Shown here piece after piece: positions 2,250 through 61,257 of a stretch of DNA of 64,000 nucleotides; position 1 is the stretch's first letter; each line of letters begins with the position of its first letter. The notes under the pieces are model-generated. The model was given only the letters and a program-made list of their open reading frames with translations. It was not told the DNA's origin and searched no databases. Where the stretch lies: the NCBI RefSeq assembly GCF_053078305.1, contig NZ_CP166879.1. One strand, written 5' to 3'. Made by a program: the position numbers and the translations under genes.

Positions 2250-3569
2250 ATGTTGCCGTTTCTGAAAGCGCCTGCCGATGCGCCATTAATGACTGACAAA
2301 CATGAAATTGATGCACGCTATCGCTACTGGCGTCGGCATATTCTGCTGACCATCTGGCTGGGTTACGCGCTGTTTTACTTCACACGGAAAAGTTTTAACG
2401 CCGCCGTACCAGAAATCCTTGCTAACGGCGTGCTCAGCCGTAGCGATATCGGCCTGTTAGCGACCCTGTTTTACATTACTTACGGCGTGTCGAAGTTTGT
2501 CTCCGGCATTGTCAGCGATCGCTCAAATGCCCGTTATTTTATGGGGATAGGGCTTATCGCCACGGGCATTATCAACATTCTGTTTGGCTTCTCGACGTCG
2601 CTATGGGCGTTTGCCGTACTCTGGGTGCTGAACGCCTTTTTCCAGGGCTGGGGTTCACCGGTGTGTGCGCGTCTGTTAACCGCCTGGTATTCTCGTACCG
2701 AGCGCGGCGGTTGGTGGGCATTATGGAACACGGCGCATAACGTCGGCGGCGCACTCATTCCCATTGTGATGGCAGCGGCTGCACTACATTACGGCTGGCG
2801 TGCCGGGATGATGATTGCTGGTTGTATGGCGATCGTCGTGGGGATTTTTCTCTGCTGGCGGCTGCGCGATCGCCCGCAGGCGTTAGGTTTACCGGCGGTC
2901 GGTGAATGGCGGCACGACGCGCTGGAGATTGCTCAACAACAAGAAGGGGCAGGGCTGACGCGTAAAGAGATCCTCACCAAGTATGTGTTACTGAATCCGT
3001 ATATCTGGCTGCTTTCGTTTTGCTATGTGCTGGTCTATGTGGTCCGGGCGGCAATCAACGACTGGGGCAATTTGTATATGTCCGAGACGCTGGGCGTCGA
3101 TCTGGTCACGGCGAATACGGCAGTGACGATGTTTGAACTGGGCGGATTTATCGGTGCGCTGGTAGCCGGTTGGGGCTCGGACAAATTGTTTAACGGCAAC
3201 CGTGGGCCGATGAATTTGATTTTCGCCGCCGGAATTTTGCTTTCAGTCGGCTCGCTGTGGCTGATGCCATTTGCCAGCTACGTGATGCAGGCAACCTGCT
3301 TCTTCACTATTGGTTTTTTTGTCTTTGGCCCGCAGATGTTAATCGGCATGGCGGCGGCAGAGTGTTCACACAAAGAGGCGGCAGGGGCGGCGACGGGGTT
3401 TGTCGGCTTGTTTGCTTATCTGGGGGCGTCGCTTGCTGGTTGGCCGCTGGCGAAAGTACTCGATACCTGGCACTGGAGCGGTTTTTTTGTGGTTATCTCT
3501 ATTGCCGCCGGGATTTCCGCACTGCTGTTACTGCCCTTTTTGAACGCCCAGACACCGCGCGAAGCGTGA
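2250..3569 (+). CDS. uhpC: MFS glucose-6-phosphate sensor protein UhpC
   Basis: 439-aa MFS protein MLPFLKAPADAPLMTDK..., paralog of UhpT, in conserved uhpABC order. Confidence 0.9.
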   Translation: MLPFLKAPADAPLMTDKHEIDARYRYWRRHILLTIWLGYALFYFTRKSFNAAVPEILANGVLSRSDIGLLATLFYITYGVSKFVSGIVSDRSNARYFMGIGLIATGIINILFGFSTSLWAFAVLWVLNAFFQGWGSPVCARLLTAWYSRTERGGWWALWNTAHNVGGALIPIVMAAAALHYGWRAGMMIAGCMAIVVGIFLCWRLRDRPQALGLPAVGEWRHDALEIAQQQEGAGLTRKEILTKYVLLNPYIWLLSFCYVLVYVVRAAINDWGNLYMSETLGVDLVTANTAVTMFELGGFIGALVAGWGSDKLFNGNRGPMNLIFAAGILLSVGSLWLMPFASYVMQATCFFTIGFFVFGPQMLIGMAAAECSHKEAAGAATGFVGLFAYLGASLAGWPLAKVLDTWHWSGFFVVISIAAGISALLLLPFLNAQTPREA

Positions 3570-3589
3570 TGCATCTCACCTTTTCACTT

Positions 3590-3706
3590 CATATCCGGCA
3601 AAACTAAGAAATTTTCCAGGTTTTGCCTGGACGCTATCTCAGGCCTGATTTGCTGCTGATTTTTACAATGCATGCCTCACGCAGGTATTCATTTCAGGAG
3701 TAACCC
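3590..3706 (+). promoter_or_regulatory. uhpT promoter/UhpA-CAP control region (position inferred from context only)
   Basis: non-coding interval between uhpC stop and uhpT start with RBS aggag before the ATG at 3707; binding sites not individually mapped. Confidence 0.4.
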
Positions 3707-5098
3707 ATGCTGGCTTTCTTAAACCAGGTCCGCAAGCCGACCCTGGACCTTCCGCTCGAAGTGCGGCGCAAAATGTGGTTCAAACCGTTCATGCAATCCT
3801 ACCTGGTGGTCTTTATCGGCTACCTGACGATGTACCTGATTCGCAAGAACTTTAACATCGCGCAGAACGATATGATTTCGACCTACGGGTTGAGCATGAC
3901 GCAGCTGGGGATGATCGGCCTGGGTTTCTCCATCACTTATGGCGTGGGTAAAACGCTGGTTTCCTACTACGCCGACGGCAAAAACACCAAACAATTCCTG
4001 CCGTTCATGCTGATCCTGTCTGCCATTTGTATGCTGGGCTTCAGTGCCAGTATGGGCAGCGGCTCGGTTAGCCTGTTCCTGATGATTGCCTTCTACGCCT
4101 TAAGCGGCTTTTTCCAGAGCACCGGCGGTTCGTGCAGTTACTCCACCATCACCAAATGGACGCCGCGTCGTAAGCGCGGGACCTTCCTCGGTTTCTGGAA
4201 CATTTCTCACAACCTTGGCGGTGCAGGTGCAGCAGGTGTGGCGCTGTTCGGCGCAAATTACCTGTTCGATGGTCATGTTATCGGCATGTTTATCTTCCCG
4301 TCGATTATCGCGCTGATTGTCGGTTTTATCGGCCTGCGTTACGGCAGCGACTCCCCGGAATCTTATGGCCTCGGCAAAGCTGAAGAACTGTTCGGCGAGG
4401 AGATCAGCGAAGAGGACAAAGAGACAGAATCTACCGATATGACCAAGTGGCAGATCTTTGTTGAGTATGTGCTGAAAAACAAAGTGATCTGGCTGCTGTG
4501 CTTCGCCAACATTTTCCTCTATGTGGTACGTATTGGTATCGACCAGTGGTCAACCGTATACGCGTTCCAGGAACTGAAACTCTCTAAAGCGGTGGCGATT
4601 CAGGGCTTTACGCTGTTTGAAGCTGGTGCGCTGGTCGGTACGCTGCTGTGGGGCTGGCTCTCTGACCTGGCGAACGGTCGCCGTGGCCTGGTGGCCTGCA
4701 TCGCGCTGGCGCTGATTATCGCCACGCTCGGTGTGTATCAACATGCCAGCAACGAATATATCTATCTGGCTTCTCTCTTTGCGTTGGGTTTCCTGGTCTT
4801 TGGCCCGCAATTGTTGATTGGTGTGGCTGCTGTTGGTTTTGTACCTAAAAAAGCGATTGGTGCTGCCGATGGTATTAAAGGCACCTTTGCTTACCTGATT
4901 GGTGACAGCTTTGCCAAGTTAGGTCTGGGAATGATTGCCGATGGGACGCCGGTATTCGGCCTTACCGGCTGGGCAGGCACCTTCGCCGCACTTGATATCG
5001 CCGCGATTGGTTGTATCTGCCTGATGGCGATAGTGGCGGTGATGGAAGAACGCAAAATCCGCCGCGAGAAAAAAATTCAGCAGTTGACAGTGGCATAA
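3707..5098 (+). CDS. uhpT: Hexose-phosphate:phosphate antiporter UhpT (MFS)
   Basis: 463-aa MFS protein [32 protein letters not shown]... Confidence 0.95.
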
Positions 5099-5116
5099 AC
5101 GTAACTGGTGACTTTT

Positions 5117-5143
5117 GCCCGGCATGACGCCGGGCTTTTTTTA
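5117..5143. terminator. Bidirectional rho-independent terminator between convergent uhpT and ade
   Basis: stem gcccggc / gccgggc (5117-5135) followed by T7 run (5136-5142); A-rich on the other side. Confidence 0.7.
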
Positions 5144-6907
5144 TTCCGTGACTTCCAGCGTGGTGAAGGCAAACTTCTCGCCATCAAATAGCCCCTGACT
5201 GGTTAGTTTCAGCGCGGGGATCACTGGCAGAGAAAGAAACGCCATCTGAATAAACGGCTCATCGGGTAACGGACCGCATTCACGGGCGGCGGCTTTCAAG
5301 GCGTCAATTTGCTCGGCCAGCGACTGCGCCGTGTCGGTGCTCATCAGCCCGGCAATGGGCAACGGTAGATGACTTTGTACCTGGCCGTTACGTACCACGC
5401 ACAACCCGCCGCCATCCTGAATCACCTGATTGACCGCCAGCGCCATCTCTTCGGCACTGCGACCGATCACCACAATATTATGGCTGTCATGGCTGACCGT
5501 CGCAGCCAGCGCGCCTTCATTCAGGCCAAAGCCGCCGAGCAAACCACAGGCCGGAGCCAGACGTTGCCCGTAACGCTCAAGTACGGCAATAAAGCACACA
5601 TCATCGCGATCAAAACCATTTTCGCTGTAGACGCTGGAGCGGGAGTGCGTAATCAATTCGTTATGGATGACGTCAATGACCCGATAGCGTTTTCCGGGCG
5701 TGAATTGCAGGGCAAAGTCGCTGGCGGAAACTGGCTGGCGGGCAATGGTATTGCCATACGGCGGAGCGGATTGTGCCAGTCTCGCCGACTCTTCCGCCTG
5801 TAAGGTTTGCGCGTCAATCGGTTCGCCTTTCACCAGTACCTGCTGCACCGTGACCTTACGCGCATCGCTCAACAGGACGATATCGGCCTGCTTTCCGGGT
5901 GCCAGTAAGCCGAGGTGATTCAGACCAAAGTGGCGCGCCGTCGACCAGCTGGCGACGCGATATGCCACATGCAGCGGCACATTGTGTTGTTCGATCAGGC
6001 GGCGAATTAAGGCATCGATATGCCCTTCATGAGCGATTTCCCACGGGTTACGGTCATCGGTACAGAGCATGCATTGCGGGCTGTTAAATTCGTTGATCAA
6101 CGGTGCCAGTGCGTTGAGATTGCGGGCAGCGGACCCTTCGCGGATCATCAACGACATGCCGAGTTGTAATTTCCGCCGTCCTTCTTCCAGCTGATAACTT
6201 TCGTGGCAGTTTTCAATACCCGCAGCAATATAGGCGTTAAGTTCTTTACCACCCAAACCCGGGCAGTGACCGTCCAGCGTCAGGTGGCGAAATGCATCCA
6301 GTTTATCGAGCAGCGCATTCTGCCCGCTAATTACGCCAGGGTAGTCCATCATTTCTGCAAGGCCGGTAACCTGCGGATGGTCCCGCCAGGCGAGCATCTG
6401 TTCAAGGGTAAAACTGGCACCGTTAACATCGCAGCCTTCCAGAGCGGGCACGCAAGAGCTGACCTGTAAGTACTGGTTTTGCCTTGCCTGTTCGGCACAG
6501 CGGGCAAACCAGGCGAATCCGGCTTCGCCCATCACGTTGACGATTTCATGAGGGTCGCAAATAACGGTCGTCAGGCCGCGCGGCAGAGTAGCGGTTTCAA
6601 AGGTGACCGGCGTCATCATGCTGGATTCAATATGCAGGTGAGCATCAATAAACCCTGGCACCGCCGTTGCGCCGCGGGCATCAATCCGCTGCAAAGCCGG
6701 AGCATCAGTGTATTCTGCGCCAACACCGGCAATGTAACGTCCTTTAATCACAATTGGGCCGGAAATTTCTCCGCCATTGATCAGGTCGAGAATAGAGACA
6801 TTATCAATAATATAATCGGCAACAGCGTCGCCACGGGAAACGGCTAACAATTCCTGGTATTCAGCCCGGCTAATGTGATGAAATTTATGGTTAATAGAAT
6901 TATTCAT
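5141..6907 (-). CDS. ade: Adenine deaminase
   Basis: 588-aa product [27 protein letters not shown]...; amidohydrolase metal-binding motifs (DAHLHIES). Confidence 0.9.
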
Positions 6908-55757: not shown

Positions 55758-58935
<3,178 letters not shown>

Positions 58936-59225
58936 GGTTCTCTCCCTAAAAATCTGTCTGGCAGGGTAGCGATTTGTGCGCATTGTCACGATTGAGATTT
59001 TTTAAGGTGAGGAGAAATTGATAACTTGTAGTTATGTGAAATCGCTATTTTCTGTAGCAGAGATGCATTCTTCTGACTTCTTGTCTGAGAAAATGCATAA
59101 GAAAAAATAGGTTAAAACTGAGGGGGGAAAAGAAAGGTGCAATATTTAGCCATTGTGTTCACTGCACCTGGACCTTGGCTTACGCATCGGGTGTCTCAAT
59201 CAACAAAAAGAGTTTTTAGTTTCTG

Positions 59226-60048
59226 CTATTTCTTCTCTGTAATTTTTACACTGTTTTCCAACTGCTTGATGCTGACCTGCGGGGTCGGCAACTCCTCAGG
59301 CATGGTTCCGCCAAGTTCCTGAATGGTTTGCCTCACCTTGCTACCCACGTCAAAGTGTGTGGTATTAGCTTGTTGTTTTGAATTCACGCCATCCCGCTTG
59401 AGTTTTTCTTCTGTTTGGGTAGCTCGAAAGAGATTAGCCGCCAGTTCTGTTGAACCCATATGATCCAGGATCTTCTGACCCTTTTTCAGCCCCTTCCGCT
59501 GATAAATAGCTTTCTGATCTAATCCACCATACAGCCCCGGTAACCATGATTCTGAAATATGGCGAAATCGATAGCTGTTGCTACCCCAGCTTGCTGCGCT
59601 GCCTCAACTAATTGTTTGTTATGTTCTTTCAATTCATTTCTCAGAAAAAGACGCTTTTCGTCTTCACGAAGTTGCCTGAAAGCTTCATCGTCAGCCAGCT
59701 CCTGCCGTCGGGTCTGGATAGCAAAATAAGTTTGTCCTGCCGCAATAACCGGTTTCGCAGGGTCGCCGTTTTGTACTACCAGGTAACAGGCATAGCGGGA
59801 GAGATGAACATCTTCAAGTTCTCGTTGAGCCCTGAACCTAATACAACCATTTTGGTGGTTTCAACGAAATGGTCAGATGCAGCTTGATTGCTGGCTTCGC
59901 ACGCTTGAGTCGCGCGGGTCAGTACCTTTTGAAAACTGCGCCAGTCCCGATAATCCAGTAACGGTGCCAATTCTCTCGCTGACCAAAATTCTTGCCCTTC
60001 AGTGCCATAATGCCGTATCTCTTCAAAAGGTTGATGATGTTCGTTCAT
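59226..60048 (-). pseudogene. dinD: DNA-damage-inducible protein D (dinD) disrupted by frameshifts
   Basis: three consecutive minus-strand segments in three different frames: N-terminal ORF (MNEHHQPFEEIRHYGTEGQEFWSARELAPLLDYRDW...), an open middle frame ([27 protein letters not shown]...FQNHGYRG) and C-terminal ORF 59226..59459 (MGSTELAANLFRATQTEEKLKRDG...); sits at the K-12 dinD position between yicG and yicC; LexA box upstream. Confidence 0.6.
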
Positions 60049-60093
60049 TGCCCACTCCATGTGATATCGATTGCAAAGAAAGTAAATCTGCAA

Positions 60094-60109
60094 CTGTATT
60101 TATATACAG
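60094..60109. promoter_or_regulatory. LexA (SOS) box upstream of dinD
   Basis: ctgtatttatatacag fits the CTGT-N8-ACAG SOS-box consensus, ~45 nt upstream of the dinD start on the minus strand. Confidence 0.6.
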
Positions 60110-60200
60110 TTGTGAGTATCTCACGTTCTCAGAGTGCTGGGCAAAAAACATCGCAAAATCTGGAGCAGGCACGCAAAACAGATTTGAATGTTGCGGGGAA

Positions 60201-60232
60201 GAAAAATGCCGCTCTGTTTGAGTGGCGGCATT
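60201..60232 (-). terminator. Rho-independent terminator downstream of yicC
   Basis: minus-strand hairpin atgccgc-cactcaaacaga-gcggcat followed by TTTTTCTT. Confidence 0.6.
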
Positions 60233-60267
60233 TGTGAAGGCGGAAAAGTAAGAATTGGCGTTACGAG

Positions 60268-61131
60268 TTATTCGATGTTCTGAATCTGCTCACGCATTTG
60301 CTCAATCAACACTTTCAGCTCGATGGCAGAGTTTGTCACTTCGGCATTGATAGATTTCGACGCAAGAGTGTTCGACTCGCGGTTGAACTCCTGCATCATA
60401 AAGTCCAGACGACGGCCAACCGCTTCTTTTTTCTTCAGAATGTTGTAGGTCTCTTTAACATGCGCTTCGAGGCGGTCCAGCTCTTCGGCAACGTCAATTC
60501 GTTGTGCCAGCAGAACCAACTCCTGCTCCAGACGGTTGTTTTCCAACTGAACCTGAGCATCTTCCAGTTTCGCGACCAGACGCTCACGCTGCCATTGCAG
60601 GATTTCCGGCATATGGGCGCGCACTTTGACCACTTCGGCGGTGACGCCTTCCAGACGCTGCTCAATCAACGCTTTCAGCGCCTGACCTTCGGTTTCGCGA
60701 GCGATGATAAAGTCATCCAGGGTGCCATCCAACGCTGCGAGAATTTCAGCGGCAATCGCGTCGAGATCTTGCTCCTGGGCCGCCATCACGCCCGGCCAAC
60801 GGAGAATATCAACTGGGTTGATTTCCCCTTCGTCACTCTGCATTTTTACCCAGTTCGCGGCAGTTACCAGCTGTTTAGCCAGTTTTTCGTTGAGGATCAG
60901 CTCACCTTGCGCGCTAACATCTGGCTCATAGCGCAGGGTACATTCCACTTTACCGCGCGTCAGGCGAGAACGAATACGCTCGCGAACGACAGGTTCAAGG
61001 CTACGGAACTGCTCCGGCAGACGAAAGTAAGTTTCCAGATAACGCTGGTTTACCGAGCGCATTTCCCAGGTTGCGCTCCCCCATTCACCCTTGATTTCAC
61101 GCCGGGCGTAGGCGGTCATACTGCGGATCAT
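60268..61131 (-). CDS. yicC: YicC-family protein (UPF0701)
   Basis: 287-aa ORF MIRSMTAYARREIKGEWGSATWEMRSVNQRYLETYFRLPEQFRSLEP... Confidence 0.9.
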   Translation of the reverse strand: MIRSMTAYARREIKGEWGSATWEMRSVNQRYLETYFRLPEQFRSLEPVVRERIRSRLTRGKVECTLRYEPDVSAQGELILNEKLAKQLVTAANWVKMQSDEGEINPVDILRWPGVMAAQEQDLDAIAAEILAALDGTLDDFIIARETEGQALKALIEQRLEGVTAEVVKVRAHMPEILQWQRERLVAKLEDAQVQLENNRLEQELVLLAQRIDVAEELDRLEAHVKETYNILKKKEAVGRRLDFMMQEFNRESNTLASKSINAEVTNSAIELKVLIEQMREQIQNIE

Positions 61132-61257
61132 AGACGTTCCTGTTTATAAAAGGAGAGGTGGAAGGATTATAGCCATCGATGCCTTGTCAGGATAGGAATA
61201 ACCGCCGGAAGTCCGTATAATGCGCAGCCACATTTGTTTCAAGCCGGAGATTTCAAT

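Follow-up and report, generated by a model that had tools for sequence, protein, structure and literature searches.

A dinD pseudogene with two single-G deletions downstream of an intact LexA box in Escherichia coli

The coding sequence of dinD in the DNA analysed here (the window: 64,000 nt of contig NZ_CP166879.1, RefSeq assembly GCF_053078305.1) has lost a single G at each of two sites and lies downstream of an intact LexA box. The locus is almost certainly a genuine dinD pseudogene, shared vertically and horizontally, which arose by two successive G losses and would have lost DinD activity. The double frameshift is already known, since the same allele is annotated in RefSeq, where PGAP flags the same 823-nt sequence as 'frameshifted' in E. 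coli D8 and in O145:H28 RM9872; a literature search on a dinD pseudogene found nothing relevant.

Reading frame and lesions of the dinD locus

The gene order ligB, yicG, dinD, yicC, rph and pyrE at 56.6–62.7 kb of the window is that of E. coli K-12. On the minus strand, the dinD ATG begins at 60048 and the TAG stop ends at 59226, and translation of 59226–60050 together with all coding-strand frames bore out the original prediction that the DinD-like coding sequence is spread over three reading frames (Table 1). DinD residues 1–73 are read in the native frame and are followed by 17 out-of-frame codons and a stop at 59776–59778. This 90-codon open reading frame (ORF) is the only one still joined to the native start and ribosome-binding site, and it stops short inside the Bro-N domain, where the native sequence is cut at residue 73. 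The middle segment reaches its first start codon, a TTG at 59632, near the segment end, and the C-terminal segment contains a 77-aa ORF that opens at ATG 59459.

A "repaired" translation, with one G put back at each of the two sites, is 274 aa long and matches the NCBIfam family NF008573 (DNA damage-inducible protein D) over residues 1–274 with 496.7 bits against a cut-off of 242, a full-length score indicating that the likeness to DinD is not due to chance. The Bro-N domain (PF02498) lies at residues 10–105 of the repaired protein (E = 6.4e-11). The NF008573 match rises above its cut-off when G is restored at both sites and not otherwise. As the window carries it, with two 1-nt deletions, dinD has no uninterrupted frame of about 274 aa, and on its sequence it is a pseudogene, a predicted non-functional member of the DinD family.

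Table 1 Features of the dinD locus in the window and of variant dinD loci in other E. coli genomes
Feature	Coordinates	Strand	Details
dinD pseudogene	59226..60048	(-)	823 nt vs 825 nt intact; between yicC and yicG as in K-12
Native-start ORF	59776..60048	(-)	90 codons (73 DinD + 17 out-of-frame) + stop
Middle segment, DinD codons 74–171	59519..59829	(-)	second frame; stop 59519–59521
C-terminal segment, DinD codons 172–274	59226..59534	(-)	third frame, down to TAG
Frameshift site 1	59830..59832	(-)	GGG, GGGG in intact same-type alleles; codon 73/74
Frameshift site 2	59535..59538	(-)	GGGG, GGGGG in intact same-type alleles; codon 171/172
Shine-Dalgarno GGAG	60055..60058	(-)	7 nt upstream of ATG; identical to K-12
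LexA (SOS) box AACTGTATATAAATACAGTT	60092..60111	(-)	core CTGT-N8-ACAG, string CTGTATTTATATACAG, at 60094–60109; 44–63 nt upstream of ATG
603-nt dinD	L008 427–1029 (KBN10P04869); L012 675–1277 (STEC306)		annotated intact protein WP_001356259.1
Two further independent dinD lesions, CDS-458 deletion and phage-like insertion	L014 701–1530; L017 701–1500
Second dinD copy	L013 (E. coli XJ5.2) 3077–6640		likewise in O157:H7 G5295 among other matches

The ancestral state at each lesion was read from the intact same-type alleles of 0H15, INSC1002 and O157:H7 EDL933, from protein P0001 and from FDAARGOS_944. At site 1, TCAGGGGCT has become TCAGGGCT through loss of a single G (alignment column 217; intact in 0H15, INSC1002 and EDL933), and at site 2, TACCGGGGGCTG (encoding Gly-Tyr-Arg-Gly-Leu) has become TACCGGGGCTG, again through loss of a single G (alignment column 512). 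A frame change had been predicted near 59820–59850, and the site 1 G run falls inside that interval; the other had been placed near 59470–59490, whereas the real site is about 50–65 nt away, and the earlier assignment was probably misled by the start of the last ORF, ATG 59459.

Nucleotide alignment with K-12 dinD, the check proposed with the original prediction, does recover two 1-nt gaps but does not place them exactly, for which same-type alleles are needed. K-12 was rejected as the sole reference for the indels: against it, site 2 is wrongly read as the loss of an A (CCAGGGG), and the alignment at site 1 is poor since the N-terminal segments are different alleles.

From these alignments we infer that the ancestral dinD carried the common 'enterobacterial-type' N-terminal allele and that replication slippage in the GGGG run at codon 73/74 was the most likely cause of the first G loss. 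The resulting frameshift would end translation after 90 codons and remove the C-terminal two-thirds of the protein.

Further along the window, just downstream of pyrE, lies a retron-type reverse-transcriptase ORF of 323 aa with the motif YCDD (62967–63938, plus strand), and FDAARGOS_944 has a 'reverse transcriptase family protein' annotated at the same place, between pyrE and slmA. The pyrE–ttk (slmA) intergenic site is the one described for retron Ec107. An Rfam scan of 58900–64000 at gathering thresholds found no RNA family.

Distribution, history and dispensability of the allele

Population counts were taken over 5,426 complete E. coli genomes. The 71-mer with the site 1 deletion occurs exactly in 141 of them and the repaired 71-mer in 2,628, while for site 2 the corresponding counts are 131 and 402, most of the remaining genomes missing both site 2 71-mers owing to nearby SNPs. 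Identity to the window over the whole locus (1,161 nt) reaches at least 99% in 119 complete genomes, and the double-frameshift allele is confined to about 2.3% of complete genomes. Carriers of both deletions include D8, many O145:H28 isolates, ST540, KL53, AR_0061 and CFSAN051542.

Over 24 kb, no genome comes closer to the window than FDAARGOS_944 (98.9% identity), whose dinD is 824 nt long and annotated as 'frameshifted', with site 1 deleted and site 2 still GGGGG. Because it carries the site 1 lesion only, the site 1 deletion appears to have come first and that at site 2 later. The slightly higher frequency of the site 1 lesion (141 against 131 genomes) fits this order. Comparison of the alleles thus suggests that the loss at site 1 probably inactivated the gene, and that the GGGGG run at codon 171/172 would have lost its G later, by neutral decay of a gene already dead. 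This order is the simplest reading and draws mainly on one intermediate, FDAARGOS_944, with 15 further differences in its dinD; the same pattern could also come from recombination or from slippage that recurred at site 1. Five substitutions set the window lineage apart from all the other alleles in the comparison. Two of these are synonymous and three nonsynonymous (Asn38Ser, His183Tyr and part of Asn191Gly), and His183 is otherwise invariant across the aligned homologues. These small numbers fit relaxed constraint as judged from the alignment. The description of the pseudogenisation as recent holds only loosely, as the allele spans many lineages, the first lesion also occurs in a more divergent allele, and the complete genomes offer no intact allele closer than about 98.2%.

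The pseudogene sits in a short block that is nearly identical between backgrounds. Compared with D8, the window shows one SNP from 57600 to 60183 and then about 2.6% divergence through yicC from 60292; compared with O145, it matches only over 58388–60183, with ligB and yicG diverging upstream of 58388. The nearly identical block is thus 1.8–2.6 kb long, with flanks that are 2–3% divergent, a pattern which indicates that either the dead allele or its flanks passed from one background to another by recombination.

On the yicC side the recombination breakpoint falls at 60183–60292, and yicC itself occupies 60268–61131. The window and D8 show 38 differences in the approximately 1.5 kb beyond 60183. 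At most of these, D8, O145 and FDAARGOS_944 agree with one another, so that the yicC of the window is an unusual allele.

Across E. coli, dinD is itself variable. About 13% of complete genomes lack a cassette of about 1.15 kb (window ~59110–60260, LexA box included); 713 of the 5,426 gave no match to the dinD locus query, and the empty yicG–yicC site has an intergenic region of about 250 nt, as in TO217. A 603-nt dinD, produced by a 222-nt in-frame deletion (CDS positions 453–674), appeared in 4 of 60 evenly spaced rows sampled. In 6 complete genomes and very many draft contigs, loss of 1 nt at CDS position 458 leads to a 155-aa product, for which the contig collection has 2,217 indexed blocks. 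Mobile elements have also struck the gene: a phage-like element with pRha and AlpA-type genes is inserted after dinD codon 236, RM9088 carries an IS1 insertion in dinD, in strain H2 and CP027597 the gene is cut short by mobile elements, and ISKox3 lies upstream of it in some strains. Some strains possess a second, 85% identical dinD of the Salmonella/Pectobacterium type. It forms a tandem pair with the resident copy and lies at the edge of an island that has been inserted beside yicC and also contains an SSB gene and a pRiA4b ORF-3 family gene. Phages and phage satellites commonly carry DinD homologues. dinD is therefore a dispensable, variable accessory gene that has been independently broken several times, and one more loss is unremarkable.

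The same variability could be read as a sign of selection. The absence of the cassette in about 13% of genomes and the existence of at least five independent kinds of disruption (the CDS-458 deletion, IS1, truncations and the 222-nt deletion among the losses and damages recorded) could make dinD a hotspot of repeated, possibly selected, loss, an interpretation that we consider unlikely. For the window allele in particular, loss of DinD, or possibly the SOS-inducible 90-residue Bro-N fragment that the pseudogene might still yield, would have been favoured and spread by recombination, and the short recombinant block common to different backgrounds is in keeping with such a history. If so, the pseudogene would mark adaptive SOS tuning rather than neutral decay. 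Recurrent loss is, however, just as much to be expected of a dispensable gene with relatives among mobile-element genes, given that homologues abound in phages and satellites and that some strains have a second copy on an island, and the double-frameshift allele is limited to a small minority of complete genomes. We thus regard adaptive loss as improbable, and neutral decay of a dispensable gene as the preferred reading.

Authenticity of the deletions and predicted expression of the locus

The deletions are tied to one SNP haplotype. When both sites of the query were repaired, the same 119 genomes alone remained above 99% identity, and the best intact allele was 98.2% identical; among complete genomes this haplotype was therefore never seen intact. 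The products of the broken frames recur as well: the public protein collection has the exact 90-aa and 77-aa fragments from at least 1,000 contigs each, under the name DinD in E. coli, O145:H28 among them. Both lesions of the window genome thus appear in other genomes, a confirmation from independent assemblies of what the sequence suggested.

The original prediction offered recent pseudogenisation or sequencing indels, and these observations support the former, the deletions lying on one haplotype in 119–141 genomes. Errors of sequencing or assembly in homopolymer runs, which would leave dinD really intact, are suggested by the fact that both sites are G homopolymers, the classic setting for indel errors, but are so improbable as to be negligible: the runs are short (4–5 nt), the two deletions co-occur in about 120–140 complete genomes from many laboratories and years, they are bound to a haplotype distinct from its nearest intact relative, their fragment proteins are widespread, and GGGG was read correctly at site 1 in 2,628 genomes that share the flanking 71-mer. 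The list of carrier strains argues against an origin of all of the approximately 130 carriers in a single sequencing centre or pipeline. Strains with the exact window sequence were all frameshifted, and those encoding a contiguous protein had one additional G at each site, so that comparison with other strains left the prediction of a broken gene standing.

Upstream of the pseudogene, the regulatory signals remain those of K-12. The 20-mer of the LexA box is base-for-base the K-12 dinD operator, which upholds the original prediction that the box is intact, and the dinD start codon is also identical to that of K-12. The core pattern CTGT-N8-ACAG has 2 matches in the window against 0.58 expected by chance. 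The second of these, CTGTTCTGTAGAACAG at 26913–26928, lies inside a 383-aa ORF (26085–27236, minus strand) and is probably a chance match. A promoter and terminator consensus scan of 59000–60300 found none, and a simple sigma-70 scan was negative in any strain compared; the integrity of the dinD promoter is suggested by its near-identity to K-12.

dinD is listed among the LexA-regulated genes with a known SOS box (PMC6590174), and PMC4849656, with reference to Uranga et al. (2011, J Biol Chem 286:29480), describes DinD as a regulator that helps to clear RecA filaments; its activity is reported as removal or inhibition of post-synaptic RecA filaments. As the operator is identical to that of K-12, LexA should still bind and repress the locus, and SOS induction should still give rise to a transcript. 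The transcript could then yield only a 90-residue peptide, comprising about two-thirds of the Bro-N domain (73 native residues) and 17 unrelated residues, and the activity of DinD on RecA filaments would be lost.

Retention of the operator was considered as a sign of selection and rejected. By our own calculation, from about 5 lineage-specific substitutions in 823 nt (~0.6%), a 20-nt site is expected to stay unchanged by chance with a probability of about 89%, (1-0.006)^20. The lineage divergence is too small for a 20-nt site to have changed, and the intact operator is therefore uninformative about selection.

With operator, ribosome-binding site and start codon all intact, a double-frameshift allele that persists in many lineages, and a last segment that begins with a 77-aa ATG ORF, dinD might be thought to function still through programmed ribosomal frameshifting, transcriptional slippage or separately expressed split pieces, but this is scarcely credible, as two independent -1 recoding events would be required, the incoming frame shows no X XXY YYZ slippery heptamer at either site (TCA GGG CTC and TAC CGG GGC), runs of G3 and G4 are too short to slip efficiently, the middle segment offers no start codon before the late TTG, no Shine-Dalgarno sequence is evident for the 77-aa ORF, the window lineage has replaced the otherwise invariant His183, and the second deletion is most simply explained as decay.

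A decayed dinD has little significance beyond correct annotation. The strain of the window and about 2% of sequenced E. coli, O145:H28 included, would be without DinD, which is SOS-induced and a minor regulator of RecA filaments. In its behaviour dinD is an accessory gene and not a core SOS gene. Such strains keep a LexA operator that is predicted to titrate repressor and to drive a dead transcript. In carrier strains dinD promoter fusions should stay valid as SOS reporters, but phenotypes attributed to the DinD protein do not.

Comparison with known dinD genes

The K-12 gene (b3645, pcsA) occupies the same site between yicC and yicG, with an identical LexA box and ribosome-binding site, and its codons 1–11 and 83–274 are nearly identical in nucleotide sequence to those of the window. 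Between these nearly identical flanks, at codons ~12–82 (window ~59800–60015), the two alleles differ by about 100 substitutions in approximately 215 nt. Of the 5,426 complete genomes, 2,771 carry the Bro-N segment of the window type, and most others carry that of K-12. The window-type segment is closer than that of K-12 to the DinD of Salmonella and Pectobacterium, and since the window type thus resembles other enterobacterial DinD, it is the K-12 N-terminal segment that looks like a recombinational replacement. A search for a phage donor of the K-12-type segment revealed no close one, but did uncover distant DinD homologues in Streptococcus satellites and actinophages. Two phage records of about 174 kb, MG065691.1 and MG065686.1 (Campylobacter phages A11a and A18a), contain the K-12 DinD N-terminus at 100% identity, which looks like E. 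coli contamination or misassembly. In half of E. coli, K-12 does not serve as a suitable reference over the 5′ third of dinD.

Unlike K-12 dinD, the window gene carries two 1-nt deletions and cannot encode the 274-aa protein. Its closest relatives share these lesions: the D8 allele (ACSAYX_RS18895) has the same 823 nt and both deletions, with 0 substitutions across the CDS relative to the window, and that of O145:H28 RM9872 (I3Y_RS22695) has the same length and deletions with 1 substitution. FDAARGOS_944 (I6H01_RS12465) has the site 1 deletion in common with the window and 15 CDS substitutions, and by its sequence is likely an intermediate state. The intact alleles with the same N-terminal type equal the window gene in length apart from the two G's. 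All are uninterrupted over 825 nt, and they differ from the window by 14 substitutions in 0H15 (WP_001411731.1), 15 in INSC1002 (WP_001300958.1) and 28 in O157:H7 EDL933 (WP_001002036.1).
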